Of a DNA stretch of 36,494 nucleotides, positions 15,441 to 36,333 are shown piece by piece. A program made the position numbers and the translations under genes. Every line of letters begins with the position of its first letter. Within the stretch, counting starts at the first letter, position 1. The stretch is taken from UHGV virus genome UHGV-0309737, one strand, 5' to 3'. The notes under the pieces are model-generated. The model did not search any database. It was not told the origin of the DNA and saw nothing but the letters and a program-made list of their open reading frames with translations. This DNA comes from a virus.

Positions 15441-15737
15441 ATGCCGCTGGTTGCCACCTTCCGAACAGACTGGTTCCGCGTCATTACCGACCTGACCAGA
15501 AAAAACCTCACCACTCAGCAAATCGCCGATGAACTTGGCGTTTCGAAATCTGCCGTTCTCGGTTGGAAATCCGGATCAGAACCTCGCCACGGTCACGGTG
15601 AGGCGCTGATCGCTCTCTGGTGTCTGGCTACCAGCTCAGACCGTAAAAAACTCCCCACTGTGCTTTATCGGCAGTGGTGGACGTTCCGCCGCCCTGTTTT
15701 TGGTCGGGAAACTGACCAGAAGGGCAACACACAATGA
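15441..15737 (+). CDS. Small HTH DNA-binding protein, candidate late-gene regulator
   Basis: 98 aa; HTH LTTQQIADELGVSKSAVLGW; sits directly upstream of structural module. Confidence 0.45.
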   Translation: MPLVATFRTDWFRVITDLTRKNLTTQQIADELGVSKSAVLGWKSGSEPRHGHGEALIALWCLATSSDRKKLPTVLYRQWWTFRRPVFGRETDQKGNTQ

Positions 15738-15765
15738 CGGCTCACTAATTCAGGAGTGAAAAAAT

Positions 15766-16209
15766 ATGGCTCGACCGAAAAAAAACATCGAGACGCCGGG
15801 GCAGGAAAAAACCGTGACGGATGAAAATACGATTGTGGCGGAATCGCAGTTGCTGAATTCCGAAACTGTGCCGGCTCCGGTCGCTGTGGAGAAAAAAGCC
15901 TCAGCGCCAGAAATTCAACAGCGTGTAGCGCAGCTGCTTGATGGCACCGCTCTTGCCGAACGTAACGCGATCCTTGCCGCTCTCAATTCTCAGGGTGCAA
16001 CAATCATCGCTCGTTTTGATGAATTGGATTTTATTTCCATCAATGGCCAGCGCCTTACCGACAACCTCGAATTTCTTACCCTCGTACGAAAAGCCACTGA
16101 TGTAAGCACCGGCGGCGCGGGTGCAATGGTGACAAACGAAGAGGGCAAGCCGCAACCGGTACGTGGCGCACCTGTATTAACCGAACACGGCTGGCATGTG
16201 CCGGGCTAA
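15766..16209 (+). CDS. Hypothetical protein with strong RBS, first gene of structural module
   Basis: AGGAG SD; 147 aa. Confidence 0.5.
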   Translation: MARPKKNIETPGQEKTVTDENTIVAESQLLNSETVPAPVAVEKKASAPEIQQRVAQLLDGTALAERNAILAALNSQGATIIARFDELDFISINGQRLTDNLEFLTLVRKATDVSTGGAGAMVTNEEGKPQPVRGAPVLTEHGWHVPG

Positions 16210-16220
16210 GGGGGAATCGT

Positions 16221-16445
16221 ATGTGTGGAGGCGGTGCACCAAAAGTCGTAGAGCAGGATCCGCAGGCTGAGGCAGATGCAGCAGCCGACGCCGCAGCGAA
16301 GGCCGCGAACGCCGACGCCGCAGCGCGCAAGAAGCGCAAGAAAGGTTCCTCGCTGCTGGCAAGTGGTGCCGAAGGCGCAACGGATACAGGTTCATCCCTG
16401 CTTTCCTCTGGCGCCCAGGCAGCAAAAAACACCTTAGGGGCATAA
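16221..16445 (+). CDS. T7 gp6.7/gp7.3-like small virion protein
   Basis: 74 aa, MC start, Ala/Gly/Ser-rich with RKKRKK as in T7 gp6.7 (MCFSPK...) and gp7.3 (...RKKARAGGKKSLS...). Confidence 0.45.
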   Translation: MCGGGAPKVVEQDPQAEADAAADAAAKAANADAAARKKRKKGSSLLASGAEGATDTGSSLLSSGAQAAKNTLGA

Positions 16446-16448
16446 TCG

Positions 16449-18071
16449 ATGGATGAACTCGCCGTAAAGCTGGTTAAGCGTGCCGATACGCTGAAAGCCA
16501 ACCGACAGGTGCACGAAAGCGTCTGGCGGGAATGCTACGACTACACCTATCCGCTACGCGGCGCGGGGCTATCCGATGAGGTGCTGGACGCACAGAGCGC
16601 AAAATCGAAGGTGGCACGGCTGCTTGACGGCACGGCCACCGACAGCGCCCGCATGCTGGCGTCAGCTCTCATGTCCGGCATGACCCCGGCAAACGCGCAG
16701 TGGCTGAACCTCGACAGCGAATCGCTGCCGGATGATGCCGCCGCGTGGTTGTCCACCTGCGCAACGCTGGTATGGGAAAACATCCATGCAGCCAACTTCG
16801 ACGCCGAAGGCTATGAGGCGAATCTCGATGTGGTATGCGCTGGCTGGTTCGCGCTGTACATCGACGAAGACCGCGAAGAGGGCGGATTCTCGTTCCAGCA
16901 GTGGCCGCTGGCGCAGTGCTATGTCACATCCACCCGCCGCGATGGCATCGTGGACACGATTTATCGCCGCTACCAGCTCACCGCAGAGCAGGCGATTAAA
17001 GAATTTGGCGCGGATAAGGTCAGTAAGAAGATTCGCGATGCGGCCGCCAAAAAGCCGGATGACAAATTCGACTTCCTGCACTGCATTTTTCCGCGTGAAA
17101 ACTACGTGGTGAATGCGCGCCTGGCTAAAAACCTGCGCTTTGCATCGTACAACGTGGAAGTGAGCGGCAAGCTCATTGTGCGCGAATCGGGCTATCACGA
17201 ATTCCCCTGCTGCGTACCGCGCTGGATGAAAATTCCCGGCACGCCGTACGGTATCGGCCCGGTATATGACGCGCTGCCGGACTGCAAAGAGCTGAACGAA
17301 ACGAAGCGCATGGAGAAGGCCGCGCAGGATCTGGCGATCGCCGGGATGTGGATTGCGGAAGACGACGGCGTGCTCAACCCGCGTACGGTCAAGGTGGGCC
17401 CGCGCCGCATCATCGTGGCCAACAGCGTAGACAGCATGAAACCGTTGCTAACCGGCGCCGATTTCAATGTGGCCTTTACCGCAGAAGAACGCCTGCAGGC
17501 ATCTATCCGCAAAATCATGATGGCCGACCAGCTGCAACCGCAGGACGGCCCGGCGATGACTGCAACCGAAGTGCATGTGCGAGTCGCGCTGATCCGCCAG
17601 TTGCTTGGCCCGGTCTATGGCCGATTCCAGGCTGAATACCTGCAACCGCTGGTAGAGCGTTGCTTCGGCCTGGCATATCGCGCCGGTGTATTCCCGCCAG
17701 CGCCGGATAGTCTGCAAAACGCTAATTTCAATGTGCGCTATATCTCGCCGCTTGCCCGCGCGCAGCAGCTGGAGAACGTCACAGCCATTGAACGCCTTGG
17801 CGCGAACGTGGCGAATCTGGCGCAGGTATCACCCGATGTGACCGACCTCGTAGACACCGACGAAGCAACACGCGTGATAGCGGATGCGCTGGGCGTACCG
17901 GCGAAAGTCATTCGCTCGTCTGATGCCGTCGAACAACTTCGCCAGCAGCGCCAGCAGGCGCAGCAGCAACAAGCAGGGCAGGCACTCATGATGCAGGCAG
18001 GTAGCGAGGCGGCAACCACAGCAGGGCAGCAGGTGGGCGCAGCGCTGGGCCAACGAGTAGCGGGGGGCTAA
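16449..18071 (+). CDS. T7-like portal (head-to-tail connector, gp8-like)
   Basis: 540 aa; FPCCVPRWMKIPGTPYGIGPVYDALPDCKELNE vs T7 gp8 EACPYIPIRMVRLDGESYGRSYIEEYLGDLRSLEN; Gln/Ala-rich C-terminus as in gp8. Confidence 0.8.
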   Translation: MDELAVKLVKRADTLKANRQVHESVWRECYDYTYPLRGAGLSDEVLDAQSAKSKVARLLDGTATDSARMLASALMSGMTPANAQWLNLDSESLPDDAAAWLSTCATLVWENIHAANFDAEGYEANLDVVCAGWFALYIDEDREEGGFSFQQWPLAQCYVTSTRRDGIVDTIYRRYQLTAEQAIKEFGADKVSKKIRDAAAKKPDDKFDFLHCIFPRENYVVNARLAKNLRFASYNVEVSGKLIVRESGYHEFPCCVPRWMKIPGTPYGIGPVYDALPDCKELNETKRMEKAAQDLAIAGMWIAEDDGVLNPRTVKVGPRRIIVANSVDSMKPLLTGADFNVAFTAEERLQASIRKIMMADQLQPQDGPAMTATEVHVRVALIRQLLGPVYGRFQAEYLQPLVERCFGLAYRAGVFPPAPDSLQNANFNVRYISPLARAQQLENVTAIERLGANVANLAQVSPDVTDLVDTDEATRVIADALGVPAKVIRSSDAVEQLRQQRQQAQQQQAGQALMMQAGSEAATTAGQQVGAALGQRVAGG

Positions 18072-18304
18072 TGGCTACAAAACAAGTATCACCGGCGGAC
18101 TACAAACGCATTTTCGAGGAAATGCCAGGCGGGCCGCAGGTGCTGGATGAATTAACGCGCCGATTTGGGCGAGCGGCGTACGTCCCCGGCGGCACCGAGG
18201 GCGACCGCGAAACCTGTTACCGGGCCGGACAACGTGCCGTGCTCGATTTCATTCTGATGCAAATCAACCGTGCAGATGGAGTAAACGACGATGTGGAAGA
18301 TTAA
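18071..18304 (+). CDS. Hypothetical small protein
   Basis: 77 aa ORF, ATG overlaps portal stop. Confidence 0.35.
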   Translation: MATKQVSPADYKRIFEEMPGGPQVLDELTRRFGRAAYVPGGTEGDRETCYRAGQRAVLDFILMQINRADGVNDDVED

Positions 18305-19139
18305 ACACTTATTCATGAACGCCGAGCAGGGCGCCGAAGCGCCAGCAGGCAGCACAGGGGGCAATGATGGTGGCAATGGCAGTAGTGCTGAAAATCCGGG
18401 CACTGGTAATCCTGCTGGTAATTCACTACTCAGCACCGGCGCGGGCGAACAGGGCGCGAATGACTGGATACCTGAAAAATTCCGCGTTGTGGGCGAGGAC
18501 GGAAAACTCAGTATTGAAAGCTCAGCCCGCAAACTGGCGGAGAATTACTCTCTCCTTGAAAAACGCATGGGCAGCGGCGATGCGCCGCCAAAAACTGCTG
18601 ATGACTATGCCCCAGAGGTAAAGGCCGAAGGCTTCAACTGGGAAGAATTCAAAGCTGACCCACGCATGCAGTCGTTTATGAAATCGGCGCACGGCAAGGG
18701 GATCACCAACGACCAGATGAGTTTCATCATCAGCGAGTATGCGCAAATCGCCCCGTCGCTGGTCAACGGTGCGGCGGAACTGGATGCTGAATCCGCTACC
18801 ACGCAGCTGCGAGAAGTCTGGAAGACAGACGCCGAATTTAACAAGAATATCGGCCTGGCCTTCCGCGCATTCAATTCCCTGACCGATGAAGGAGATCGCG
18901 GCCGCATCGATGAAATCGGCAATAACCCGATGGTGATCCGCATGCTGGCGAAAATCGGCGCGGAAATGCAGGAGGACGCACCGGCGGGCGCCGACAGCAA
19001 CCCGGCAGAGCAGCAGACCATCCGTGACCTGATGAAGTCCGAAGCGTACATGAATCCGAAGCATACCGACCATGAGCGCGTATCTGCACAGGTGAAAGCG
19101 TACTACCAGAAGCGTTACGGCGATCAAACCGTAGCGTGA
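18291..19139 (+). CDS. Scaffolding protein (gp9-like by position); start may be ATG 18318
   Basis: acidic, Ala/Gly-rich 270-280 aa between portal and capsid, followed by terminator. Confidence 0.5.
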   Translation: MWKIKHLFMNAEQGAEAPAGSTGGNDGGNGSSAENPGTGNPAGNSLLSTGAGEQGANDWIPEKFRVVGEDGKLSIESSARKLAENYSLLEKRMGSGDAPPKTADDYAPEVKAEGFNWEEFKADPRMQSFMKSAHGKGITNDQMSFIISEYAQIAPSLVNGAAELDAESATTQLREVWKTDAEFNKNIGLAFRAFNSLTDEGDRGRIDEIGNNPMVIRMLAKIGAEMQEDAPAGADSNPAEQQTIRDLMKSEAYMNPKHTDHERVSAQVKAYYQKRYGDQTVA

Positions 19140-19161
19140 CATGTCACGATAAGCCAATCGA

Positions 19162-19190
19162 AGCCAGCCTGACCCGCTGGCTTTTTTATT
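19162..19190 (+). terminator. Intrinsic terminator after scaffold gene
   Basis: GCCAGC-ctgacccg-GCTGGC + TTTTTT. Confidence 0.75.
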
Positions 19191-19192: not shown

Positions 19193-19210
19193 GTCGGGAT
19201 TCCGACCGCG
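19193..19210. promoter_or_regulatory. Conserved palindromic late element copy 1 (GTCGGGATTCCGACCGCG)
   Basis: one of four copies of GTC(A/G)GGATTCCGACC; 148 nt upstream of capsid ATG. Confidence 0.6.
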
Positions 19211-19357
19211 CACCTCGCTAACAATCATCCCACAACCAGCCAGGCGGGGACGCCGGATAACTGAATTTTCCCGCAATGCGCCAGCGCCAACCGCATTGTG
19301 CTGATTTGGGCCGGAAATACCGACAACCCGCAGGCGATACTTTCTGGAGTGATTGTT

Positions 19358-20269
19358 ATGTCATTTGATACCGCTAAGAACATGATCACCGCTGCGTTTA
19401 TCCAGCAGTTCCATGATTCTTTCGAAATTGCCGCACAGCAGAAGGATTCCCGCCTGCAAGGTGCTGTTTACGACCGCGGCAACATCACCGGCGCGTCATT
19501 CACCATCAACGATATGGGTACCATCGAAATGACCCAGATCACCGAGCGTTTCGGTGATACCGTCTGGGATCTGCCTGATGCCGGCACCCGTAATGCGCTG
19601 ATGGCCGACTATGGCGTATTCGTGCCGGTGGAAAAGCGCGACCTGCGCAAACTGCTGGCTGACCCGCAGGGGCCATATTTGCAGCTGACGCTGGCCGCAT
19701 CCAACCGCAAAAAAGACGACGTTATCTATCGTGCGCTGCTGGATGACGTTCTGCGCAAAACCTCCAACACTGGCGCGTACGCTCCGGTTGCTCTCCCCGC
19801 ATCGCAGAAAATCGTTGCTGGCGGTACCGGGATGACCAAAGCGAAGCTGATCGCCGCAAAAGCCATGTTCCGTCGTAACGAGTGTGACGAGCAGAACGGG
19901 GAAGAGCTGTATATCACCTACAACGCCGACATGCTGACCCAAATCCTCAGCGATACCACGCTGACCAGCGCCGACTTTATGGCAGTGAAAATGCTGCAGG
20001 AAGGCGCAGTGTCTGGTAACTGGCTGGGCTTTAAGTGGCTGGCCTATGAAAAACTGGATTCTGCTGAAGCAGGTGATCCAGCGGTCACCACCAAAACCGC
20101 GGTTGCCTGGTGTAAAACCGCTGTGCATTTCGGTACCGGCGAAGAGTACAACGTCGATATCGGCCCGCGCCGCGATAAAAACAACACCATTCAGATTTCC
20201 GTCGATGCGTCCTATGGCGCAGGCCGCGCAGCGGAAAACAAAGTCGTCGCCATCGATTTCGTAGCATAA
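19358..20269 (+). CDS. Major capsid protein, T7 gp10-like
   Basis: 303 aa from ATG 19358 with GGAG SD; size/position and C-terminal similarity to gp10; followed by strong terminator as T7 T-phi. Confidence 0.7.
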   Translation: MSFDTAKNMITAAFIQQFHDSFEIAAQQKDSRLQGAVYDRGNITGASFTINDMGTIEMTQITERFGDTVWDLPDAGTRNALMADYGVFVPVEKRDLRKLLADPQGPYLQLTLAASNRKKDDVIYRALLDDVLRKTSNTGAYAPVALPASQKIVAGGTGMTKAKLIAAKAMFRRNECDEQNGEELYITYNADMLTQILSDTTLTSADFMAVKMLQEGAVSGNWLGFKWLAYEKLDSAEAGDPAVTTKTAVAWCKTAVHFGTGEEYNVDIGPRRDKNNTIQISVDASYGAGRAAENKVVAIDFVA

Positions 20270-20285: not shown

Positions 20286-20313
20286 GCCGGGGGATATCTC
20301 CCGGCCTTTTTTC
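20286..20313 (+). terminator. Strong intrinsic terminator after capsid gene (T-phi analogue)
   Basis: CCGGGGG-atat-CTCCCGG then CCTTTTTT. Confidence 0.85.
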
Positions 20314-20328
20314 ATCTGAGGTAAGGCT

Positions 20329-20892: not shown

Positions 20893-20893
20893 C

Positions 20894-22888
20894 ATGCGCG
20901 CCAATCTGATTAAAACCAACTTCACCGCCGGAGAAATTTCCCCGCGTCTAATGGGGCGTGTTGATATCGATCGCTATGCAAACGGCGCGAAGACGCTGGA
21001 AAATAGCGTGGTCGTGGTGCAGGGCGGGGTAATGCGTCGCCCCGGCTCGCAGTTCGTAGCGGCCACAAAGTACGGCGATAAAAAATCCCGCCTCATTCCG
21101 TACGTTTTCAATCGCACGCAGGCGTACATTCTGGAGTTTGGCGACGGCTATCTGCGAATTTACCAGGATGGTAAGCAACTGGTGAACGACGATAACACGC
21201 CGTACGAAATCGCCAGCCCGTACACCTCTGACATGCTGCCATCGGTAAATTACGTACAGGGCGCTGATACCATGTTTCTGGTGCATCAGTCCGTTAAACC
21301 GTACCGCCTGCAGCGACGCGGGCAAACCGATTGGGTACTGGAACCCGCGCCGTTTATCGTTGAACCCTTCGACGAAGTGCGAGACACGCCGCAGAAATGG
21401 TGCAAGCCATCGGTGAAAGAATTCGTCGGCTCGGAAATAACGCTGACCCTGAGCGATGACGAACCGCCAGAAGATAGCGAAGACCCGCCGCCGTTTACTG
21501 GTGATGGTTGGGTGCCTGAAGATGTGGGCTCGTACGTCAGGATTAACAGCGGTCTGGTGCTGATTAAGAGCGTAACCAGTGCGCAGGTGGCCATCGGTAC
21601 CATTCGCACCGATTTAAGCGCAACGCAGGCGGCATCGCCGGGCGCATGGACTCGCGAGGATTCCGTCTGGACGGATGAATTTGGATACCCGGGCGCGGTA
21701 ACACTTTACCAGCAGCGGCTGGTTCTGGCCGGTTCGCCGCGGTACCCGCAAACTATCTGGTGGAGTGAGTCGGGCGTATACCTCTCTTTCGAACTGGGAA
21801 CCGACGACGACGACGCGATCAGCTTTACGCTGTCTTCTGACCAGCTCAACCCGATTGTGCACCTCGCGCAGATGAATACGCTAATTGCGCTGACGTACGG
21901 CGGCGAGTTCACCATTACCGCCGGCAACGATGCGGCGATTACGCCTACCAATATTTCAGTAAAGAATCCCAGCCCGTACGGATGCAATGGGATCCGCCCG
22001 GTGCGTGTCGGTACCGAAATTATGTTCGTCCAGCGTTCTGGCCGTAAGCTCTACGCTGTCGCCTATGACCCCGACAGCTATGTAGCCTACTCGGCCAACG
22101 ATATGACCGTACTGGCGGAACACATCACAGAAGGCGGCGTGATCGATATGGCGTATCAGCAGCAACCTGATGCGTTTACCTGGCTGGTTCGCAATGATGG
22201 CGTAATGGTGACGATGGCTATCGATCGGGCGCAGAACGTTGTCGCGTGGTCACGGCAGATCACCAACGGTGCGTTTGAGTCCGTAGCGACTATTCCCTCA
22301 GCGACTGACGATGTGGTGTACGCCATTGTGCGCCGTACGGTCAACGGCCAGACCGTTCGCTATGTCGAAATGTTCAGTAACGCCCTGTACACCGATGCAG
22401 CCGTGACGGGCTCCAGCGATACTGGCGCAACGACATGGGGTGGCCTGTCGCACCTCGAAGGCGAGACCGTCGATATTGTTGCAGACGGTTCTGTGATGCC
22501 GCAGGCGGTCGTATCATCCGGCCAAATCACGCTATCGCGTAAAGCCTACAAAGTAGAAATCGGCCTGCACTTCGAAACGACCATTACCACTCTGACGCCT
22601 GAAGTCGCTACATCAGAAGGTACCACGCAGAATACCCGCAAGCGCACCAGTGAAGTCACTATGCGTTTCCTCCAAACCACTGGCGCCGAGTGCAATGGCC
22701 AGGTGATCCCGTTCCGCACGTTCGGGCCAAAAATCCTCAACCAGCCGGCGCCGTTGTTCACCGGCGATCACTACTGGGGAAAACTAGGCTGGGAGCGCGG
22801 AGAAGACACGCTGACTATTCAGCAGCGCCAGCCGCTGCCGTTCCACCTTCTCGCCATTGTCATCGTATTTACCAGCAACGGGGGCTAA
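20894..22888 (+). CDS. Tail tubular protein B (gp12-like)
   Basis: 664 aa from ATG 20894; N-terminal NFTAGEISPRL... parallels T7 gp12 NLKGGISQQP... Confidence 0.7.
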   Translation: MRANLIKTNFTAGEISPRLMGRVDIDRYANGAKTLENSVVVVQGGVMRRPGSQFVAATKYGDKKSRLIPYVFNRTQAYILEFGDGYLRIYQDGKQLVNDDNTPYEIASPYTSDMLPSVNYVQGADTMFLVHQSVKPYRLQRRGQTDWVLEPAPFIVEPFDEVRDTPQKWCKPSVKEFVGSEITLTLSDDEPPEDSEDPPPFTGDGWVPEDVGSYVRINSGLVLIKSVTSAQVAIGTIRTDLSATQAASPGAWTREDSVWTDEFGYPGAVTLYQQRLVLAGSPRYPQTIWWSESGVYLSFELGTDDDDAISFTLSSDQLNPIVHLAQMNTLIALTYGGEFTITAGNDAAITPTNISVKNPSPYGCNGIRPVRVGTEIMFVQRSGRKLYAVAYDPDSYVAYSANDMTVLAEHITEGGVIDMAYQQQPDAFTWLVRNDGVMVTMAIDRAQNVVAWSRQITNGAFESVATIPSATDDVVYAIVRRTVNGQTVRYVEMFSNALYTDAAVTGSSDTGATTWGGLSHLEGETVDIVADGSVMPQAVVSSGQITLSRKAYKVEIGLHFETTITTLTPEVATSEGTTQNTRKRTSEVTMRFLQTTGAECNGQVIPFRTFGPKILNQPAPLFTGDHYWGKLGWERGEDTLTIQQRQPLPFHLLAIVIVFTSNGG

Positions 22889-23340
22889 TGATGATTCGTA
22901 ACGCCACTGCCGGGGATATCCCGGCGCTTATCGAGCTGGGAACCCGGATGTATCTCGAGTCCCGTTACTCGCAAAACTCGCCGTTTGATGCGGATAAATG
23001 CGCAGAGCTGGCGCAGAGCCTGATTTATTCGCCGTCTGGTTGTGTACTGGTCGCTGAAAAAGACGGGCAGGTGATCGGCTGGCTTGGCGGCGGTGTTGCC
23101 GAGCAATTTTTTTCCCGCCAGTTGATGGCCTTCGAGTATGGCTTATTTGTCGCGCCAGAACATCGCGGCGGTAGTGCCGGCCCGAGACTGGCCCGCGCGT
23201 TTATCGACTGGTCAAAAGAGCACGGCGCCGCCGTTATCAATATGGGGATCACCACTGGCGTGCACGCAGAACGCACTGGCCAGTTGTATTCGCGTCTCGG
23301 CCTGCAGCAAACAGGCCTGCTTTATTCGATGGAGGTTTAA
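22888..23340 (+). CDS. GNAT-family N-acetyltransferase in the gp13 slot
   Basis: 150 aa; IGWLGGGV...VAPEHRGGSAGPRLARAFIDWSKEHGA fits the GNAT acetyl-CoA binding motif. Confidence 0.6.
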   Translation: MMIRNATAGDIPALIELGTRMYLESRYSQNSPFDADKCAELAQSLIYSPSGCVLVAEKDGQVIGWLGGGVAEQFFSRQLMAFEYGLFVAPEHRGGSAGPRLARAFIDWSKEHGAAVINMGITTGVHAERTGQLYSRLGLQQTGLLYSMEV

Positions 23341-23342
23341 CG

Positions 23343-23831: not shown

Positions 23832-23836
23832 ATATC

Positions 23837-27117: not shown

Positions 27118-27119
27118 CT

Positions 27120-29618
27120 ATGAAACCACAATGTATACAGGCAGTAGAGGCACACCTTAGCGCTGTCAGTGGCAAGCCGGTTAAGCTTACGGCCGCGGCT
27201 ATTTCGCGTATCGATGAAAGAATGCATGAAGGTGCAAAAGTGCTGGCCCGCCGGGATCGCGCCTCCTGGCAATCAATGTCTCCTGATGAGCGTACGATTG
27301 CCATTGGTCAATGGGTGAGGGAACAAGAACAAGGGCAAGCAGACAGCCAGGCAAGGAGTAAAGTTCGCCAGCTTTCCGCTATTGTCGATGCAGCTAAAAG
27401 GCTTGATGCGATGGCGGGTGCCAGGCCAGACAAAGCAGGGAAATGGAGTAAATCTCTGATCGATGTACTGGAGGGCGTAGATAACACCTTGCGTGGAGCG
27501 GAGCAGGTCGCGGTAAGAGGATTCGGCGATATGCTAAAAGCGGCCAGAGTCGGGCCGTGGACGATGGATTTTGGCAATAAGCGCAGCGATGCTTTCTTTG
27601 CTGATGTCGTGCGCGAAATCTACGGTACCGATACAGGAAATGCTACCGCTAAAAGCTTTGCGCAAAAGTGGTCGGCCACCATGGACGGTTATCGCGAGGC
27701 CCGAAACCGGGCTGGTGGAACGGTAGGTAAACTGGATAATTACGCTCCACAATCCCATGATGCTACGGTTATGCAGCGGGTTGGTAAGCCCGCATGGGTT
27801 TCTTTTATGATGAAGAATCTCGATCGGGAGCAATATCTTAGTGAAACCGGCACTCGTCTCACGGATCCAGAACTTGAGAGCGTAGTGGGAAAAATGTACG
27901 ACTCCATCGTAACTGATGGCGCAAATAAAATTCAGCTTGATTTACAAGGATTGGCTGAGGGGGCGCCCAGCAGTTTTGGAAGCGCCAACATCGCGAGAAT
28001 GCTTAATAGCAGCCATAGAGAGATTCATTTACGAGATGCTGATGCCGTCATCGCTTATAACAATCAGTTCAGTGATCGCGCTCTGGGTGCGTCATTCTTT
28101 AGCCATCTAAACGGCGCCGCCAGAGATGTAGCGCTCATTAATGAGATGGGGCCAAACCCTGCGCTTACTTTCGCGACGTTAAAAGATACAGCAGCGAAGC
28201 GGGATAGCCAGATGCCTGGGGCCGTTTTTGAAGGCGATGGTAGTGTCAAAGGAGGAAACCGGGGAGCATTCGGCCCCGAGGCTTACTTTCGTCAAATAAT
28301 GCGTAATAACGCAGATTTCACCGATTTTGATCGCATTAGTAGCGCGTTAACTGCGTACCAGGCTGCAACAAAATTAACCAGCACAGGGCTACGCTCAGTT
28401 TTCCAGGACACGCCGGGTATGCTTCTGAATATGGCTGATGTGGGTCAGTTGCACAACATTGGCACTGTACTGCGTACAGCCTTCCGTCCAAAAGAAGCGG
28501 CTCAGTTCGGGATTGGTGCTGAAGTGGCGGTACGCGCTGCGCGTGAAGGTGCCGAAAGAATAATGGCACAGGGGCGTTTTAACCTGGCTAACGCCCTTAG
28601 TCGATACGCTCAGGCCACTATGAAATACACGTTGCTTGACGCCTGGACGAACGCGGCCCGGCGAGCGGGGCAGACCTCGCATGCACTGGCATTAGGTGAA
28701 TGGTCACATCTGCCTTGGAGTAAGCTGGATAGTAGCCAGCGCGGGCTATTGAATAATGCCGGTATCACTGAAGGTGATTGGCAGCACATCATGAGCGTCC
28801 CCCGCAAGAAACTACGCGGGCAAGATATACACGATGTGTCTGATGTATCTGCGTTAGGGCTTTCCCCCGATGAGACTATGCGCCTGCAATCTCAAATGAT
28901 GGGGTTTATCAGAATGGGCGGCGATATCGTTACTTCAGAGCATAACCTTACGGCACAAACATTAATGAGTGCTGGTGGGCGGACTAATGCCTTGACCAAA
29001 CAGGTAATGCTTTTTAAAAATGCTGGTGCGATACAGACCGCGCACATGTTGGATCGTCTTAGTCGTAAATCTGGCACAACCAAAGTTGGTTATGTTGCGG
29101 CGACGGCTGCACTATCCGCAAGCTTTGGTTATATGGCTCTGGTAGCTCAGGCGGTAACCAGCGGGCAGAATCCACCGCCACCAGATGATATACGAACCAT
29201 TGGTAAGGCTATGGCCGTAGCTGGTGGCTTTGCGATGGTTCAGGATCTGATTACCAGTATGTACGATGCTGTTAGTGGGGATAACAGTGGCCACAGTTCA
29301 AGTGCTGTACCCATTTTTGGTGATCTTGCAACGTTGGGTAAAATTGCCTTTACTGCCCCAATTGACCCACAGAAAGCCGGGTATATGGCTATCAAGTTTG
29401 GTCGCCAGCAAATTGCTCCGTTGAATTACTGGTATACAAAGGCGGCGGTTGATCATATGTTTTTCAACGATGCGGCCGAAGCGCTCAATCCAGGCTATCA
29501 GCGAAGGCTTAGAAAGTATGCTGATCAGAAAGGTCAACAGTATTTCTGGGATCCATCTGGAGACCTAGCGGCACCAGAAATGGGATACTATAAAAAAGAA
29601 TTCGAATTTGGTAATTAG
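27120..29618 (+). CDS. Internal virion protein D (gp16-like), C-terminal ORF
   Basis: 832 aa; with upstream ORF sums to ~T7 gp16 length; different frame, 2-nt gap. Confidence 0.5.
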   Translation: MKPQCIQAVEAHLSAVSGKPVKLTAAAISRIDERMHEGAKVLARRDRASWQSMSPDERTIAIGQWVREQEQGQADSQARSKVRQLSAIVDAAKRLDAMAGARPDKAGKWSKSLIDVLEGVDNTLRGAEQVAVRGFGDMLKAARVGPWTMDFGNKRSDAFFADVVREIYGTDTGNATAKSFAQKWSATMDGYREARNRAGGTVGKLDNYAPQSHDATVMQRVGKPAWVSFMMKNLDREQYLSETGTRLTDPELESVVGKMYDSIVTDGANKIQLDLQGLAEGAPSSFGSANIARMLNSSHREIHLRDADAVIAYNNQFSDRALGASFFSHLNGAARDVALINEMGPNPALTFATLKDTAAKRDSQMPGAVFEGDGSVKGGNRGAFGPEAYFRQIMRNNADFTDFDRISSALTAYQAATKLTSTGLRSVFQDTPGMLLNMADVGQLHNIGTVLRTAFRPKEAAQFGIGAEVAVRAAREGAERIMAQGRFNLANALSRYAQATMKYTLLDAWTNAARRAGQTSHALALGEWSHLPWSKLDSSQRGLLNNAGITEGDWQHIMSVPRKKLRGQDIHDVSDVSALGLSPDETMRLQSQMMGFIRMGGDIVTSEHNLTAQTLMSAGGRTNALTKQVMLFKNAGAIQTAHMLDRLSRKSGTTKVGYVAATAALSASFGYMALVAQAVTSGQNPPPPDDIRTIGKAMAVAGGFAMVQDLITSMYDAVSGDNSGHSSSAVPIFGDLATLGKIAFTAPIDPQKAGYMAIKFGRQQIAPLNYWYTKAAVDHMFFNDAAEALNPGYQRRLRKYADQKGQQYFWDPSGDLAAPEMGYYKKEFEFGN

Positions 29619-29632
29619 ATAAAGGGGGCGGT

Positions 29633-29926
29633 ATGCTAAATCCTCATACATTGAGAATTATCATCTGGTTTGTGTTTAGTATTGTTGGATGTATTTTATT
29701 TTTTATCGCTTATGGCCGCAGTCTTAAAAGGGCTTGCTCGTTTCTCCATGATGCAAAAGTAAGTTGCGATAAAATTAAAGAAAATAATAATTCTGGTGAT
29801 TATGTAGACGCACACCAAAGGTATAAAGTCTGGAAAAATGAAGTTGCTAGTATAAAACGGCAGCGAACATACTGCCTCTTAGCCACCCCTGGAATCCTGG
29901 CCATAATCGCCATGATTTTCTGGTGA
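29633..29926 (+). CDS. Small two-TM membrane protein, AT-rich accessory gene
   Basis: 97 aa; TM at 8-27 and 78-97; SD AAGGGGG; GC much lower than flanks. Confidence 0.5.
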   Translation: MLNPHTLRIIIWFVFSIVGCILFFIAYGRSLKRACSFLHDAKVSCDKIKENNNSGDYVDAHQRYKVWKNEVASIKRQRTYCLLATPGILAIIAMIFW

Positions 29927-29929
29927 TAT

Positions 29930-29950
29930 GCATAGCCCACCGTGGTGGGC
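29930..29950. other. Hairpin between convergent accessory genes
   Basis: AGCCCACC-gt-GGTGGGCT; same stem as the 5322 terminator; no T-run. Confidence 0.5.
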
Positions 29951-30622
29951 TTAACGTTTACCTTTGTACGAATCCCAACAATTTTTGCACCATGACATCA
30001 ACCCATCACGGTTGTTTGCGTTTTTGTAATAGCTTGTGCGTTTACGGCGGATCTCACAAATTGGACACCATTTAGTGTGCTGTGTGTTTTTTGGACCATC
30101 CAGGCAGTGTGCGCACCAAGTTGTATATCCATCAGCGTGTTTACTAGATTTTCTATATTTATCTAAGGGCAGGTTTCTACTGCATCGCGTACAGACCTTA
30201 CGCCCATCAGCAACCTGAACGGTATTTTCAATTAACGTAGGTGAAATCGTGGAAGAGGGGAGCGGGTTAACGACTTTTTCAACTCTTTGAGGCTGAATAA
30301 AGGTCTGCTGCTCCGTGTGCAAAGACTCGACAGATTTCTGCTCAGAAACCTGTTTGTAATAATCGGATATAACAGCTTTGTCATATTCAGAATGACTTTC
30401 GTTATTTAAGGTATTAGGTTTCGTATACTGAGTCGAAGCGCTGTCAATCACTTGTGTTTGCTGAATACGGATTTCCCCATCTTCAGTTTTAACAGTTTTG
30501 TTTCTGGTTATAACGGTTCGATTTGTGATTTTTGTTCTGTTCTGATTGATAACGAACAAGATCACAACAACTACGCCAACAACTACCCAGAAAATTTCCA
30601 TAAAATCACTCTTAGCATTCAA
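29951..30622 (-). CDS. Membrane-anchored protein with C-terminal tandem CxxC-x20-CxxC zinc-ribbon repeats
   Basis: 223 aa; N-terminal TM IFWVVVGVVVVILFVI; repeats CTRCSRNLPLDKYRKSSKHADGYTTWCAHC and CPICEIRRKRTSYYKNANNRDGLMSWCKNC; AT-rich. Confidence 0.5.
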   Translation of the reverse strand: MNAKSDFMEIFWVVVGVVVVILFVINQNRTKITNRTVITRNKTVKTEDGEIRIQQTQVIDSASTQYTKPNTLNNESHSEYDKAVISDYYKQVSEQKSVESLHTEQQTFIQPQRVEKVVNPLPSSTISPTLIENTVQVADGRKVCTRCSRNLPLDKYRKSSKHADGYTTWCAHCLDGPKNTQHTKWCPICEIRRKRTSYYKNANNRDGLMSWCKNCWDSYKGKR

Positions 30623-30685: not shown

Positions 30686-30700
30686 GTCAGGATTCCGACC
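30686..30700. promoter_or_regulatory. Conserved palindromic late element copy 2 (GTCAGGATTCCGACC)
   Basis: 62 nt upstream of small terminase ATG. Confidence 0.6.
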
Positions 30701-30718
30701 TCTAGCCCAATACATCAT

Positions 30719-31095: not shown

Positions 31096-32702
31096 TTTCG
31101 TTCCTGGCCTTCTTTTTGATGTGGGCGGAACGGATGAACTGGGATGTGCCGGACTGCCACTATAAAGCCTGCCACTGGCTGGAGCATCGCGGAAACCTCG
31201 CGGTGCTTCGCTGTTTTCGTGGCTTTGGTAAATCAACTATCCTGGGCGTTTATAACGCCTGGCGGTATTACTGCGATCGCCAGTACCGTATTCTGCATCA
31301 GTCGGAATCCGATACAACCGCCAGAAAGACCAGCCGCGATACGCAAAACGTTCTGCGTAATCACCCACTGACGAAAGGTATGTTGCCGGACGGCATCGGT
31401 ACCATCGAGCAATGGTGGGTAAACGGCGCGCTGGATATGCGTAACGCCAGCATGTTCGCAAAAGGCATTCTGTCGAACGTTACCGGCGCCCGTGCCAACG
31501 AGTGCCAGAATGATGACGTGGAGGTGCCCGGCAATATCCAGACTCCGGAGGCTCGCGAAAAACTGCGCTATCGCCTAAGCGAGCAGACGCATATTTTGAT
31601 ACCCGGAGGCCGGAAATTGTTTATCGGTACGCCGCATACCCACGATAGTCTTTACGACGAGAAAGAAGCAGAGGGCGCTGATTGCCTGACGATAAAGCTA
31701 TTCGATAAAGAGCACCGCGTCGAAGCGAAGAAGGCAACCAAAAAACGATACCGGATACCGTTCCGCCCAGAATATGTTTTTGTGGGGATCCACAAGGCCG
31801 CCCGGTTATTGATTGAGGGTACTGATTATCGATTGACGGAAGACGGTGTAGAGTTCGCAGCGCCGCCTGAAACTGTCGTGGATTTTTATGCCGGCTGCGC
31901 GTGGCCAGGCCGTTTCGATCATGATGAATTACTGCTGCGCCGTAAAGAATGCCGCACCGTCAACGAATGGGATAGCCAGTACCAGTTGCACAGTAAACCG
32001 GTTGGCGAGGTTCGTCTCGATCCCGACCGTATCCGCGAGTACAACGTCCAGCCTGAAATTCGCTATGCGAACCGTTCCTGCTCGATGTGGCTGGGACAGA
32101 CGCAAATCGTCGGCGCTGTCGCCTGGTGGGATGTGGCCACCGGCAAAGTTAAGGCTGATGCTTCGGCATTTTCCCTTATTTTCACCGACGCCCGCGGGCA
32201 TCTTTACTGGCATGTTTGCCAGGGGTTAACTGGCGAGCTGGCAGAATTTGGCTACAACGACAAAATCACCGGCGGTCAGGTGATGCAGATTAAAGAACTG
32301 GTGCTGAAGTACCAGATCCCGCTGGTCTGCGTAGAGGTAAACGGCCCCGGCAGTTTCGCCGGGAAGTTGCTTATTCAGGCGCTGAAGGGTACCGGCTGCG
32401 GCGTGCGGGAAGAGTTCAGCGTCACCAACAAACAAAAGCGCATCCTCGATGCTTTCGAAGCGCCGCTGTCGTCCCGGTTCCTGTGGGCGCATACCGACGT
32501 GCTCGACGGCCCAATGTACGACCAGATGCGGGATTTCAACCCGGCGTTAACTAACCAGCCAGACGACTTTATCGATTCGGGATCCGGTGCGATCAGTGCT
32601 ACGCCTGTGCGCATCGGGAAATTAGTCGGGATTCCGACCGCGCAGGCGAGGGAGCATTGGCAGCCATACGATGGCGACATTTCGGTCGCTGTAGATTACT
32701 AG
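31092..32702 (+). CDS. Terminase large subunit (T7 gp19-like)
   Basis: 536 aa; Walker A CFRGFGKST; size/position. Confidence 0.8.
   Translation: MISFLAFFLMWAERMNWDVPDCHYKACHWLEHRGNLAVLRCFRGFGKSTILGVYNAWRYYCDRQYRILHQSESDTTARKTSRDTQNVLRNHPLTKGMLPDGIGTIEQWWVNGALDMRNASMFAKGILSNVTGARANECQNDDVEVPGNIQTPEAREKLRYRLSEQTHILIPGGRKLFIGTPHTHDSLYDEKEAEGADCLTIKLFDKEHRVEAKKATKKRYRIPFRPEYVFVGIHKAARLLIEGTDYRLTEDGVEFAAPPETVVDFYAGCAWPGRFDHDELLLRRKECRTVNEWDSQYQLHSKPVGEVRLDPDRIREYNVQPEIRYANRSCSMWLGQTQIVGAVAWWDVATGKVKADASAFSLIFTDARGHLYWHVCQGLTGELAEFGYNDKITGGQVMQIKELVLKYQIPLVCVEVNGPGSFAGKLLIQALKGTGCGVREEFSVTNKQKRILDAFEAPLSSRFLWAHTDVLDGPMYDQMRDFNPALTNQPDDFIDSGSGAISATPVRIGKLVGIPTAQAREHWQPYDGDISVAVDY
32625..32642. promoter_or_regulatory. 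Conserved palindromic late element copy 3 (GTCGGGATTCCGACCGCG) inside terminase 3' end
   Basis: 78 nt upstream of tailspike ATG. Confidence 0.6.
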
Positions 32703-32719
32703 CCGCCGGAGCGCCACCT

Positions 32720-34888: not shown

Positions 34889-35034
34889 TGGAAATTGGCG
34901 ACGTAACGCAGCTTACTGATGAAGAGATTAATGATTACCTGAATAACTACGTCTGGTATGGCATTTCCGCAGACGACAGGCTTCGTCTGGGTGAAGAAAT
35001 GAGACGACGCGAAGCACTTAAGGAGCAGAACTAA
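34888..35034 (+). CDS. Small ORF (48 aa) after tailspike
   Basis: ATG overlaps tailspike stop (TAATG). Confidence 0.3.
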   Translation: MEIGDVTQLTDEEINDYLNNYVWYGISADDRLRLGEEMRRREALKEQN

Positions 35035-35039
35035 AAGAA

Positions 35040-35060
35040 GGTCAGGATTCCGACCTGACC
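35040..35060. promoter_or_regulatory. Conserved palindromic late element copy 4 (GGTCAGGATTCCGACCTGACC)
   Basis: 71 nt upstream of holin ATG; extended 7-bp stem. Confidence 0.6.
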
Positions 35061-35064
35061 AACG

Positions 35065-35110
35065 CCTTACCCTCACATCACTACACATAGTGATCCCCGT
35101 GGGGGTAAGG
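35065..35110 (+). promoter_or_regulatory. Nested RNA hairpin sequestering holin SD
   Basis: CCTTACCC(35065-72) pairs GGGTAAGG(35103-10, the SD); inner ATCACT-acacat-AGTGAT. Confidence 0.55.
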
Positions 35111-35111
35111 C

Positions 35112-35342
35112 ATGCGAATGAAGAATTTACCGGATGTGGCGGCGGGAACGTCGTATATAACATCCACCGTAAGCGGTAGCTACTGGCTGCTGCAACTTCT
35201 CGATAAGGTAAGCCCCAGCCAGTGGGCGGCAATCGGTGTTCTGGCCAGTATTGTTTTCGGGTTACTTACCTACCTCACCAATCTGTACTTCAAAATCAAA
35301 GACGACCGGCGGAAGGCACAGGACTATGAGCAACAAAGCTAA
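35112..35342 (+). CDS. Pinholin, phage 21 S21-like, dual-start (M1/M3)
   Basis: ...[47 protein letters not shown] near-identical pattern to S21; MRMK dual-start. Confidence 0.85.
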
Positions 35343-35862
35343 GTTCAGCGCCGCCATGCTGGCGCTTCTGGCCGCCGGTGCTTCAGCGCCGGTACTGTTC
35401 GACCAGTTTATCGGCGAACGGGAAGGGAACACCCTGACGGCGGTTATCGATCCCGGCGATGTCTGGTCAATTTGCCGAGGTGTGACTCGCATCGATGGCC
35501 GACCGGTTGTGAAAGGGATGAAGTTAACGCAGCGTCAGTGCGACCATTACAACGCAATCGAACGCGACAAGGCGCTGGCGTGGGTACAAAAGAATGTTCA
35601 CGTTCCGCTAACTGAGCCGCAGAAAGTTGGTATCGCCAGTTTCTGCCCTTACAACATCGGGCCGGGTAAATGCTTCCCTTCGACGTTTTATCGCAAGCTG
35701 AATGCCGGCGACCGCAAAGGGGCATGCGCGGAGATCCGGCGCTGGATATTCGACGGGGGAAGGGATTGCCGGTTAACGAAAGGGCAGGCCGACGGCTGTT
35801 ACGGGCAGGTTGACCGCCGCGATCAGGAAAGTGCGCTGACGTGCTGGGGGCTTTACGAATGA
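35326..35862 (+). CDS. SAR endolysin (T4-lysozyme-like muramidase, R21-type)
   Basis: N-terminal Ala/Gly-rich SAR domain; E-x8-D-x5-S/T; [14 protein letters not shown] vs R21 GACDQLRRWTYAGG. Confidence 0.85.
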
Positions 35863-36218
35863 ATGGTAAAGCGAAGTTACTTATAGCAGGGGCATCGCTG
35901 GCGCTGGTCGCCGGTGTTTTCTACGTAGGATATCTGAAAGGCTGGTACGCACATTCAGAGCACGTTAATAGCCAGGCAAAGACGCGGGAAAAGAAGCAGG
36001 AAAAAGCGGTAGCGACTGGCGAACAGAAGGCGGCAACGGCGAGCGCTGAAGCCAAAGTGATTTACCGTACTGTTTATCGTGATGTGGTGAAATATGTCAA
36101 CGACCCGAATCATACTAAGTGTCAGTTTGATCCTGCTGCTGTGCAGCTGCGCCAGCGAGCAATCGACGCGGCCAACAATATCCCCGGATTTGATGAACCC
36201 GCCATGCAAACTAAGTAA
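35859..36218 (+). CDS. i-spanin Rz
   Basis: ATGA overlap with endolysin; N-terminal TM then coiled coil. Confidence 0.7.
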   Translation: MNGKAKLLIAGASLALVAGVFYVGYLKGWYAHSEHVNSQAKTREKKQEKAVATGEQKAATASAEAKVIYRTVYRDVVKYVNDPNHTKCQFDPAAVQLRQRAIDAANNIPGFDEPAMQTK

Positions 36219-36333
36219 CGCAGGTTCCGATAGTGACGCCGATTTGCAGAATGATATTCAGACGGCGGAGTGCGGACAGGAGCTACGAACAAACATTTAT
36301 CGGTGGCAATCCTGGTACCGCGCGACTGAATAA
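36094..36333 (+). CDS. o-spanin Rz1-like lipoprotein embedded in Rz (+1 frame)
   Basis: signal peptide-like N-terminus with Cys (LLLCSC); embedded architecture. Confidence 0.45.
   Translation: MSTTRIILSVSLILLLCSCASEQSTRPTISPDLMNPPCKLSNAGSDSDADLQNDIQTAECGQELRTNIYRWQSWYRATE

Follow-up and report, generated by a model that had tools for sequence, protein, structure and literature searches.

A lambdoid prophage of Klebsiella aerogenes with a T7-shaped virion module and candidate late promoters for the host RNA polymerase

Introduction

The virus genome UHGV-0309737 is a stretch of 36,494 nucleotides, here called the window, in which lambdoid early genes (163-15285) are followed by a contiguous + strand morphogenesis and lysis module (15441-36333) whose virion genes recall those of phage T7. 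The question raised by this locus is how its late genes are transcribed. An initial annotation had described the element as a temperate phage whose early genes are lambdoid and whose virion module is built like that of T7, and had found no phage RNA polymerase (RNAP), no T7-type promoters, and no Q-like antiterminator, leaving late transcription to the host RNAP and an unknown factor. The general outline is borne out by the content of the two modules and by the att-to-att layout of the element. We are fairly confident of the overall explanation developed below, in which the window is one complete 36.5-kb (36,494-bp) prophage of Klebsiella aerogenes, att to att, a two-module mosaic located at the tRNA-Leu gene leuZ.

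As for the late genes, they are most likely read by the host sigma70 RNAP from five phage-specific promoters, each predicted to consist of a weak -10 element and a box centred near -32.5. For the factor that the initial annotation could not name, there is now a concrete candidate, in a candidate role only: HTH98, a small helix-turn-helix (HTH) protein encoded at the head of the late module. Related loci are referred to below by our own numbers (L002, L004, and so on) where they must be told apart.

Phage Polymerase, T7 Promoters, and Antiterminators

When T7 gp1 served as a tblastn query on the window and on 37 related loci, which include the complete YeP4 genome, BUCT708, and an E. coli prophage, no match to a single-subunit RNAP was obtained at E ≤ 1, and no open reading frame (ORF) has a Pfam or PHROG match to an RNAP. 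The 23-mer in the window that comes closest to the T7 promoter consensus differs from it at 8 of 23 positions. Pfam, PHROGs, and NCBIfam reveal no member of the Q or N families among ORFs of at least 50 amino acids (aa) between 4551 and 16209, save for an unscanned 57-aa ORF at 12632-12805. Rfam finds no put- or nut-type RNA; at E ≤ 1, there are just two sub-threshold chance matches, RprA and Phe_leader at the 13952 terminator. The negative claims of the initial annotation on polymerase, promoters, and Q thus stand. Given the lack of a phage RNAP, of T7 promoters, and of Q, late transcription must use the host RNAP plus something else, and the suggestion of a second factor working with the host enzyme is supported.

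One T7-like sequence deserves mention. Directly before the ribosome-binding site of the first structural-module gene, ACGGCTCACTAAT at 15739-15751 resembles the T7 promoter core from -13 to -3 (ACGACTCACTA) at 10 or 11 of 11 positions, and the counterpart in a Raoultella locus (L009, about 9256-9268) reads ACGACTCACTAAT. We rejected it as a functional T7 promoter: the sequence decays in distant relatives, there is no RNAP to read it, and the likeness is probably due to chance.

A Late Box Ahead of the Late Genes

A conserved, palindrome-like 12-mer, the late box, emerged when the surroundings of the HTH98 gene were compared among relatives whose early modules are unrelated. The sites in the window, with the HTH98 gene, are as follows.

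15441..15737 (+), HTH98, small XRE/Cro-C1-type HTH protein (phrog_16553 at 2e-42), first gene of the late module
15704-15715 (+), late box 1, TCGGGAAACTGA, with -10-like CACAAT at 15730-15735; ahead of the block of o147b, o74, portal, Bbp19-like, and scaffold genes
19194..19225 (+), late box 2, TCGGGATTCCGA, with -10-like AACAAT at 19220-19225; ahead of the capsid gene
30687..30718 (+), late box 3, TCAGGATTCCGA, with -10-like CATCAT; ahead of the terS-like and TerL genes
32626..32657 (+), late box 4, TCGGGATTCCGA, with -10-like GAGCAT; inside the 3′ end of terL, ahead of the tailspike gene
35042..35073 (+), late box 5, TCAGGATTCCGA, with -10-like TACCCT; ahead of the lysis cassette

The pattern TCRGRAWHCYGA, with the extended form TTnGG-TCRGGATTCCGA-CC, occurs five times in the window, where 0.13 occurrences are expected and where the maximum in 100 shuffles was two. 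All five sites (15704, 19194, 30687, 32626, and 35042) belong to the late region and have the + orientation, with 50-160 nucleotides (nt) between each site and a late gene start downstream.

An alignment of the DNA downstream of the boxes, with 48 unique sites taken from 18 genomes, has sharp information peaks at three positions, namely +16 (A, 1.9 bits), +19 (A, 0.9 bits), and +20 (T, 1.9 bits); otherwise, there is almost no conservation. The peaks define a hexamer, nAnnAT, at fixed spacing from the box, which contains the two most critical bases of the sigma70 -10 element. With this spacing, the 12-mer would span about -38 to -27 and take the place of a -35 element, and the starts so predicted give 5′ untranslated regions of 23-126 nt. 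A simple sigma70 scan finds fewer promoter-like sites in the window than in shuffled sequence and none at the boxes, as would follow from these predicted promoters having no -35. The consensus sequences of sigma54 and of known host factors do not appear to fit the box.

The arrangement is shared. Both the complete genome of the temperate Yersinia enterocolitica phage YeP4 and an E. coli prophage (L038) have exactly five boxes at the five equivalent positions, and in the partial loci from Serratia, Symbiopectobacterium, Pseudomonas, Pseudoduganella, and Burkholderia, a box stands wherever an equivalent position is covered (the first two or three). The canonical box is absent from T7, Carin1, and BUCT708. 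Variant boxes occupy the same positions with the same nAnnAT spacing in distant relatives (GCGAGATTTCGC in L031, ACGGGATTCCGT in L035, and also in L020), which indicates that the box co-evolves with the phage. The exact 16-mer is present in more than 119 viral contig stretches, mostly from contigs of about 35 kb, and pairs of it are often about 1.93 kb apart, as are boxes 3 and 4. A literature search for the box sequence found no report, returning unrelated primer matches only. In four Pseudomonas loci (L016, L018, L022, and L023), an additional late box stands right after the HTH gene, with about 2 kb of further genes before the portal-proximal box, an arrangement that suggests a further box-driven unit not found in the enterobacterial versions.

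Promoters with a -10 element and no -35, in which a phage-specific box covers the -35 region, are well known from Mu C, from λ CII at PRE, and from T4 MotA/AsiA. In this class, a small DNA-binding protein of the phage, encoded just upstream of its target genes, occupies the box. The late boxes are alike in that they pair with a -10 at fixed spacing and replace the -35 from about -38 to -27 at the 48 sites. They differ from the class in box sequence; HTH98 has no sequence match among its activators, and its function is a prediction.

HTH98, the Candidate Activator

Irrespective of the early module, about 25 of 35 relatives encode a homologue of HTH98 (29-97% identity) 0.5-3 kb upstream of the portal gene. 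No other predicted DNA-binding protein accompanies the late module. In the lambdoid versions, it directly follows the nin genes, the place that Q holds in λ. The AlphaFold (AF2) model has a predicted local distance difference test score (pLDDT) of about 95 over residues 10-70 and an XRE/Cro-C1 HTH fold. Its best fold matches, the N-domain of P22 c2, controller C-proteins of restriction-modification systems, SinR, and HipB, are small dimeric proteins that bind palindromes. No sequence match connects HTH98 to the Mor/C, CII, or MotA families, and the HTH98 family is uncharacterised. Taken together, we tentatively suggest that HTH98 binds the box and activates the late promoters, a proposal that we hold less firmly than that of the promoters themselves.

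Several observations weigh against the scheme of box promoters activated by HTH98. The -10-like hexamers are weak, TACCCT and GAGCAT being examples, and the box is able to fold as a 6-bp RNA or DNA hairpin. Boxes are missing from the tail and core genes (20329-29926), and part of late expression therefore needs another route. There are relatives, L021 among them, in which an HTH98 homologue is present and no recognisable box is seen. The Acinetobacter relatives have neither a canonical box nor a detected HTH98 homologue, which fits the model, albeit in a small sample. As for the protein, the Foldseek E-values for the HTH98 model are weak (0.03-0.2), and the PHROGs name for its family is ‘transcriptional repressor’, although that is a name only.

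The Proposed Late Regulon

Three terminators bear on how the late genes could be read.

13952-13975, terminator after the phrog_536 gene (terminator scan)
19160-19184, terminator-like hairpin after the scaffold gene (terminator scan)
20286..20314 (+), intrinsic terminator after the capsid gene, GCCGGGGGATATCTCCCGGC then CTTTTTTCA, a GC hairpin (20286-20305) with a T-run

The last of these confirms the Tphi-like terminator that the initial annotation had placed after the capsid gene, the hairpin at 20286-20305 being followed by the T-run CTTTTTTCA. It is a positional analogue of T7 Tphi. A hairpin and T-run lie between the capsid and adaptor genes in all 26 of the relatives examined, with differing stem sequences.

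We propose the following scheme. HTH98, expressed from the early rightward operon, would bind the five boxes and recruit the host sigma70 holoenzyme to the -35-less late promoters. The capsid gene, located between box 2 and its terminator and having terminators after both the scaffold gene and itself, would form its own high-output unit. The genes from the adaptor to the ejection proteins, which have no box, would be read by terminator read-through. In this scheme, HTH98 would act in the manner of Mu C, λ CII, or T4 MotA and not as an antiterminator or a phage polymerase. There is a parallel in T7, where phi10, gene 10, Tphi, and genes 11/12 are arranged with read-through, and where late promoters of one type are dispersed; here, the same layout is proposed for the host RNAP.

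A broader proposal, which we advance with similar reserve to that on HTH98, is that the directional 16-20-bp box at -32.5 and a minimal -10 make up an undescribed promoter class, switched by a new family of XRE-type activators of about 90 aa, across T7-shaped temperate podophages that lack an RNAP. This widespread group of podophages includes the YeP4-like prophages found in Klebsiella, E. coli, Yersinia, Serratia, Pseudomonas, and Burkholderia. The late-box/HTH98 regulon is apparently unreported and is a specific hypothesis.

Other Readings of the Box

One alternative is that the late genes are served by read-through from the early operon, or by one constitutive promoter, and that the box is a signal at the RNA level, for instance a small hairpin ahead of every gene block that acts in processing, stabilisation, or pausing. 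The box can form a 6-bp stem with a 4-nt loop (GGTCGG GAUU CCGACC), the changes in the arms of the L031 variant (GGCGA..TCGCC) are compensatory, and both box 1, within the HTH98 ORF extension, and box 4, within terL, are transcribed as parts of these frames. Also, the lambdoid-type relatives lack the 200-bp spacer that the YeP4-type genomes have after the HTH gene. The stem is, however, interrupted by an A·C mismatch in many copies (TCAGG...CCGA), and a hairpin leaves idle the near-invariant A (+16) and T (+20), which are an exact fit to a -10 hexamer. Plain read-through would, moreover, be stopped by the strong terminators at 13952, 19160, and 20286, and no antiterminator was found. We consider this explanation unlikely.

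A second alternative keeps the box as a promoter element and gives it another reader, such as a host factor, a different protein of the module, or a cryptic, non-canonical polymerase hidden among the early or virion proteins that lack annotation. The link between HTH98 and the box is circumstantial, and the internal proteins of 651, 442, and 832 aa have no recognised domains. There is also a precedent for hairpin promoters, since those of the N4 virion RNAP are short DNA hairpins. Against this, the same boxes serve relatives with a different ejection cassette (a 904-aa SLT protein and a 965-aa protein) and with other early modules, so that neither an early protein nor a variable virion protein can be the reader. 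The sigma70-type -10 signal points to the host holoenzyme, the half-sites differ in distant phages, contrary to what a universal host factor would require, and HTH98 is the sole predicted DNA-binding protein that travels with the module. A reader other than HTH98 is thus improbable, somewhat more so than an RNA-level signal, and we retain the reading in which HTH98 and the host sigma70 holoenzyme act at the boxes.

The Virion Module and Its Distance from T7

The initial annotation had called the virion module Autographiviridae-type, with analogues of T7 proteins in T7 order. The genes of the module other than HTH98 are as follows.

15766-16209 (+), o147b, small protein
16221-16445 (+), o74, small protein
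16449..18071 (+), portal of the T7 gp8 family (PF12236 Head-tail_con at 1.4e-120), 82% identical to that of YeP4
18071-18304 (+), small protein of the Bbp19 family (PF25181)
18291-19139 (+), scaffold-like protein (phrog_3742 for the Bbp19-scaffold stretch, 18071..19139)
19358..20269 (+), major capsid protein, HK97 fold (PF19821 at 1.5e-67), 85% identical to that of YeP4
20329-20892 (+), adaptor, or tubular A
20894-22888 (+), nozzle, or tubular B
22888..23340 (+), GNAT acetyltransferase (PF00583), between the nozzle and gp14-like genes
23343..29618 (+), internal virion/ejection cassette: the gp14-like protein, then proteins of 651, 442, and 832 aa
23343-23831 (+), gp14-like protein (phrog_418 ‘internal virion protein’ at 2.8e-38)
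29633..30622, low-GC (0.44) accessory island between the ejection genes and terS, with a 97-aa membrane ORF (+) with two transmembrane segments
29951-30622 (-), 216/223-aa Zn-finger protein in this island, with duplicated CxxC Zn-finger/endonuclease VII-like motifs (phrog_6762)
30748-31095 (+), terS-like protein
31092-32702 (+), TerL (phrog_38, PF22530, T7-type RNaseH-like domain)
32720-34888 (+), tailspike, with a PF03906 Phage_T7_tail N-domain (1.5e-11) and a beta-helix depolymerase body
35118-35342 (+), S21-type holin (PF04971 at 1.8e-30)
35326-35862 (+), lysozyme with a signal-anchor-release (SAR)-like N-terminus (PF00959)
35859-36218 (+), Rz (PHROGs)
36094-36333 (+), Rz1, overlapping lipoprotein (PHROGs)

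Three proteins show direct similarity to T7 in BLASTP: the portal to gp8 (24% identity, 7e-12), the N-terminal half of TerL to gp19 (32% identity over 198 aa, 7e-20), and the N-domain of the tailspike (35% identity, 2e-3). The same search against T7 proteins gave no match for the capsid, adaptor, gp14-like protein, three internal proteins, scaffold, and small ORFs (o74 and o147b). When family profiles were compared with single T7 proteins by hhalign, the nozzle reached a moderate probability of 49% against gp12, and nothing was found for the capsid, adaptor, gp14-like protein, scaffold, internal proteins, o74, and o147b. The gp14-like protein scores 21.7 bits against PF24072 T7_gp14, under the 27-bit cut-off, and a Protein Data Bank (PDB) profile search with it, like a phmmer search with the 832-aa protein (covered by phrog_684), gave nothing meaningful. 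No domain is recognised in the 651-, 442-, and 832-aa proteins, and this includes lytic domains.

Of the direct motif matches to T7 that had been claimed, those of the portal (PF12236) and of the N-terminus of the tailspike (PF03906) therefore hold, whereas that of the gp14-like protein falls short (21.7 against 27 bits). The T7 order holds from the portal through the internal proteins and is broken by terS-terL, which stand before the tailspike gene. Among the assigned analogues, TerL is matched to gp19 (32%), the nozzle weakly to gp12 (49%), and the equivalences with gp6.7/7.3, gp13, gp15/16, and gp18 are positional only. Pfam and PHROGs show no P22-like or siphovirus structural families, no tape measure, and no major tail protein, so the grouping with P22-like phages or siphoviruses that would have spoken against the initial annotation is not seen.

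The nearest solved virions are those of Cobetia phage Carin-1 and Legionella LME-1, with T7 far behind. In the PDB, the portal matches Carin-1 (8CK0, 2.4e-53), LME-1 (9EFK, 5e-19), and T7 (6R21, 7e-10). The adaptor profile matches the Carin-1 connector (8CK1_E, 2.9e-21) and LME-1 (9EFK, 6e-12), and the nozzle profile matches Carin-1 (8CK1_A, 5.5e-144) and LME-1 (9EFK, 8e-48), with T7 not listed for either; the capsid family profile matches LME-1 (9EG4, 7.8e-13), with neither Carin-1 nor T7 listed. Two marks of the RNAP-less podophages are found here: a portal, adaptor, and nozzle homologous to those of solved members, and a PF19821 capsid with the order portal-scaffold-capsid-adaptor-nozzle-internal proteins.

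A tblastn search with the nozzle found 257 phage records, including YeP4, HTVC010P-type pelagiphages, epsilon15-like phages, BPP-1, BcepC6B, Carin1, VP2/VP5, and Liberibacter and Xanthomonas phages. No Autographiviridae are among the matches listed for the nozzle (257) or the portal (260, E ≤ 1e-5), and these lists suggest a clade outside the Autographiviridae with RNAP-less neighbours. The module, as judged from these comparisons, encodes a T7-shaped virion that is only a remote relative of T7 and belongs to a large, known lineage without RNAP (YeP4, Carin-1, LME-1, the HTVC010P type, epsilon15, BPP-1, and BcepC6B). The label Autographiviridae-type is not borne out, given that most structural proteins lack significant direct similarity to T7 and that the family is missing from the listed matches.

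These results bear on a third alternative, that a lambdoid phage acquired an Autographiviridae module in recent times and that the single-subunit RNAP of this module was lost, which would make the window a rare chimera. The portal, TerL, and N-domain of the tail fibre do fall in T7-named Pfam families, and the order from the portal to the internal proteins and the post-capsid terminator do mirror T7. Yet T7 identity is 24-35% in three proteins only and is undetectable in the others, and no Autographiviridae appear among the listed matches. Furthermore, the closest relatives have no annotated RNAP (YeP4 and Carin-1 were checked), YeP4 and LME-1 are temperate, the prophage type is common in Klebsiella, and a conserved host-type promoter set in Gamma- and Betaproteobacteria implies a long-standing life without RNAP. 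We regard recent capture as very improbable.

Comparison with Known Phages

Phages of this kind, temperate podophages that lack an RNAP and have a virion remotely of the T7 type, are already known; members have been sequenced, induced (YeP4), and solved by cryo-electron microscopy (cryo-EM; LME-1 and Carin-1). YeP4 was induced with mitomycin C and seen to be a podovirus by electron microscopy (PMC6548840); for the present prophage, a short-tailed virion is presumed by analogy with the micrographs of YeP4 and the cryo-EM of Carin-1 and LME-1. YeP4, YeP5, and YeP6 (MK733262-4; Liang et al. 2019, PMC6548840) have the same late order from the HTH protein to the lysozyme and the same five boxes, are temperate, and have no RNAP. 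YeP4 differs in having a DNA polymerase A, primase, and helicase early module with an S24 repressor instead of a lambdoid module, a 270-bp spacer after the HTH gene, another holin and spanins, and diverged internal proteins (24-39%).

LME-1 is likewise a temperate prophage, with a RepO-type replication gene and homologous portal, adaptor, nozzle, and capsid (9EFK/9EG4); its cryo-EM study reports that the virion resembles that of T7, that the genes stand in the order of T7, and that similarity to T7 in sequence is absent (Sci Adv 2025, PMC12407071). It differs from the window in being much more distant in sequence and in having a head decoration protein. Carin-1 (PQ119497; 8CK0/8CK1), which provides the nearest solved virion and has no annotated RNAP, differs in its terminase beside the portal, its cement and head-spike proteins, its giant 2854-aa protein, its lack of a canonical late box, and its other early genes.

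T7 and the Autographiviridae share with the window the portal, scaffold, capsid, adaptor, nozzle, internal core proteins, and fibre N-domain. The window differs from them in having no single-subunit RNAP, T7-class promoters, or T7 DNA polymerase/primase, in its terminase genes before the tailspike, in being temperate, and in the sigma70 -10 signature. As to replication, there is no match to gp5, DnaB has only a distant P-loop similarity to gp4 (8.5e-8), and the genes are of the lambdoid RepO/DnaB type. True T7-like phages with an integrase (the pelagiphage HTVC019P type, the cyanophage P-SSP7 type, and Pseudomonas LUZ100) likewise have an integrase or temperate features alongside a virion of the T7 type; they differ in retaining the phage RNAP, described as a hallmark of the group, and T7-like replication genes.

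Module Exchange

Most late proteins are 51-85% identical to, and collinear with, those of the Yersinia enterocolitica temperate phages YeP4/5/6, with 62-85% identity to YeP4 for the proteins from the portal to gp14 and for the terminase. The o147b protein and the three ejection proteins are only 24-39% identical to those of YeP4, and the holin and spanins have no YeP4 match. A megablast search of the late half against deposited phages gave no close DNA match; the relatives were found by protein searches. The similarity to YeP4 begins exactly at HTH98 (15441), just downstream of the following element.

15398..15427 (+), left edge of the shared late module, GC-rich near-palindrome/hairpin CTCTCTATGCTCGCGCACGCGCGCGTTT, 15-40 nt upstream of the HTH98 start

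This element, a single copy in the window, is kept ahead of the HTH98 homologues in both lambdoid-type and YeP4-type relatives, while the sequence farther upstream is unrelated. The left recombination edge of the late module is at this element, which may serve as an attenuator, as an operator, or in packaging. Its centre alternates between AC and GT among relatives.

An identical portal is found in two contexts, with the lambdoid early module (L004) and with a YeP4-type early module in Klebsiella (L005), the latter consisting of DNA polymerase A, a PDDEXK nuclease, an S24 repressor, and a Prim-Pol/VapE primase. Lambdoid versions with the late module are also present in E. coli 23GD11002 (at the same leuZ-yecA site), Raoultella, Serratia, and Symbiopectobacterium. 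At 90% identity, the portal cluster has 367 members and the TerL cluster 549, in Klebsiella, Raoultella, and E. coli. The chimera is thus real, but the ‘unusual evolutionary chimera’ of the initial annotation is not unusual: with clusters of this size and the same architecture in four other genera, the prophage type is common in Klebsiella. A reciprocal mosaic is known in the Hamiltonella phage APSE, in which an early module of the YeP4/BPP-1 type is joined to a P22-like late module with the Q antiterminator retained (PMC8579659), an instance of module exchange that involves the same phage group.

Exchange is also seen inside the late module. The ejection cassette (23837-29618) is swapped among otherwise near-identical prophages, three of which (L005, L008, and L038) carry a 904-aa SLT-transglycosylase and a 965-aa protein; GC content falls to 0.46 at 24-25 kb. 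YeP4 has a homologue, 43% identical, of the 216/223-aa Zn-finger protein at the equivalent place. The GNAT gene is kept in most relatives (Enterobacterales, Pseudomonas, Burkholderia, and Acinetobacter), and in pelagiphages a ‘putative acetyltransferase’ is annotated beside tubular B. PDB matches of the tailspike are to capsule depolymerases and to the N-domain of Carin-1 Dpo31 (2e-13), making it a capsule-depolymerase-type protein in a clinically relevant host. The lysis cassette is a complete one of the phage 21 type, with an S21 holin (PF04971), a SAR-like lysozyme, and Rz and Rz1 after the tailspike gene, as the initial annotation had it. The SAR character of the lysozyme is predicted solely from an N-terminal hydrophobic stretch rich in Ala and Gly.

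The Prophage Unit, Its Site, and Its Host

The left end of the window is defined by the following repeat.

1..119 (+), attL copy of the att direct repeat; the exact 119-nt repeat restarts one base past the end of the window (36494) in the longer public contig L007

A search for att repeats within the window itself found none, as the second copy begins just outside its end, at the base directly after the last one. Because the exact repeat flanks it, the window is a single prophage unit. Positions 1-33 are the 3′ end of the host tRNA-Leu(UAA) gene leuZ, so the claim that the integrase targets a tRNA gene is confirmed, with the 119-bp att repeat at the far side. ARAGORN calls no complete tRNA gene in the window and finds tRNA-Leu, Cys, and Gly genes beside the integrase in L006. 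The identity between the right end of the phage and tRNA-Leu reaches 23 nt deeper into the tRNA (36472-36494 plus 1-119; ATTTAAAATCCCTCGGCGTTCGC), and this extension brings the full att identity to about 142 bp, with the phage restoring the tRNA from the anticodon loop on.

The left flank consists of the host tRNA-Gly/Cys/Leu cluster followed by pgsA-uvrC-uvrY, and the right flank of a DHDPS-family gene and a DUF805 gene followed by yecA-tyrP-yecH-ftnA. No phage-like genes were found in these flanks beyond the att sites, and the RNAP gene just outside the window that the initial annotation had allowed for is not there. The flanking host genes are about 82% identical to E. coli at the nucleotide level, and the exact portal, TerL, and integrase proteins are deposited under Klebsiella aerogenes.

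It is hardly credible that the prophage is a defective remnant with a silent late module, which would leave no late mechanism to explain: its CI-like repressor of 151 aa has no detected S24 autocleavage domain, but every expected gene is an intact ORF between the att sites, its exact proteins recur in dozens of genomes, its YeP4 relatives are inducible and form particles, and its cis elements are conserved.

The Early Module

The early genes were identified with PHROGs, Pfam, and NCBIfam.

163..1209 (-), tyrosine integrase (PF00589, PF22022, phrog_1)
1148-1411 (-), DUF4224 Xis-like ORF
1808..6182 (-), leftward early operon (PHROGs and Pfam), its proteins 85-95% identical to those of BUCT708, with small ORFs also present
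1808-2374 (-), Gam-like protein of the leftward operon
2374-4518 (-), 714-aa exonuclease of the leftward operon
5727-6182 (-), CI-like HTH repressor, 151 aa
6286..15285 (+), rightward lambdoid early/nin operon, which includes Cro-like, CII-like, and HolE-like proteins, an MT-A70 methylase, and unknown ORFs
7274-8266 (+), RepO-like initiator of the rightward operon
8263-9651 (+), DnaB of the rightward operon
13590-13928 (+), phrog_536 ‘transcriptional regulator’ of the rightward operon
14375-14971 (+), NinB/DUF1367
14968-15285 (+), Ref/DUF968 nuclease

The lambdoid order is present, that is, int-xis, recombination, cI-cro-cII, an O-type initiator and helicase, and nin genes, and the difference from lambdoid phages is that N/Q-type antitermination is not detected. 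The description of the upstream region as lambdoid is thus confirmed gene by gene, from the integrase, Gam, and exonuclease through the CI-, Cro-, and CII-like proteins, the RepO-like protein, and DnaB to NinB/DUF1367 and Ref/DUF968. No S24 autocleavage domain is detected in the 151-aa repressor, and induction may accordingly bypass the RecA-cleavage route.

Sixty percent of positions 1-15440 aligns with phage vB_SmeS_BUCT708 at 86% nucleotide identity. BUCT708 (L002, OM816834) was deposited as a Stenotrophomonas siphovirus, yet it carries a distant module of the podovirus type (portal 27%, adaptor 29%, and nozzle 32% identity), and its host and morphotype labels look doubtful. The phrog_536 gene has about 80% nucleotide identity with epsilon15 and Enterobacter phage Tyrion. 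In the segment 13590-14100, this gene is followed by the strong terminator (13952-13975), a 120-bp AT-rich spacer, and then the NinB block; the region may be an operon boundary or contain a promoter within the ‘early’ arm.

Implications

One identical portal with two unrelated early modules in one genus is a clean, datable case of module exchange, and its junction is the conserved element ahead of the small HTH gene. If the proposed regulon is correct, the virion module, its activator, and its promoters move jointly, as a self-contained ‘plug-in’ late regulon that can stand behind early modules of the lambdoid or the DNA polymerase type. The module would then reproduce, with the host RNAP, what is seen in T7, where late promoters are dispersed and a terminator follows the capsid gene. 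The promoter and activator are also a potential compact, portable pair that depends on the host RNAP. The box and its -10 offer a testable answer to how late genes are timed without an RNAP or Q, and the same logic is predicted in dozens of genera.

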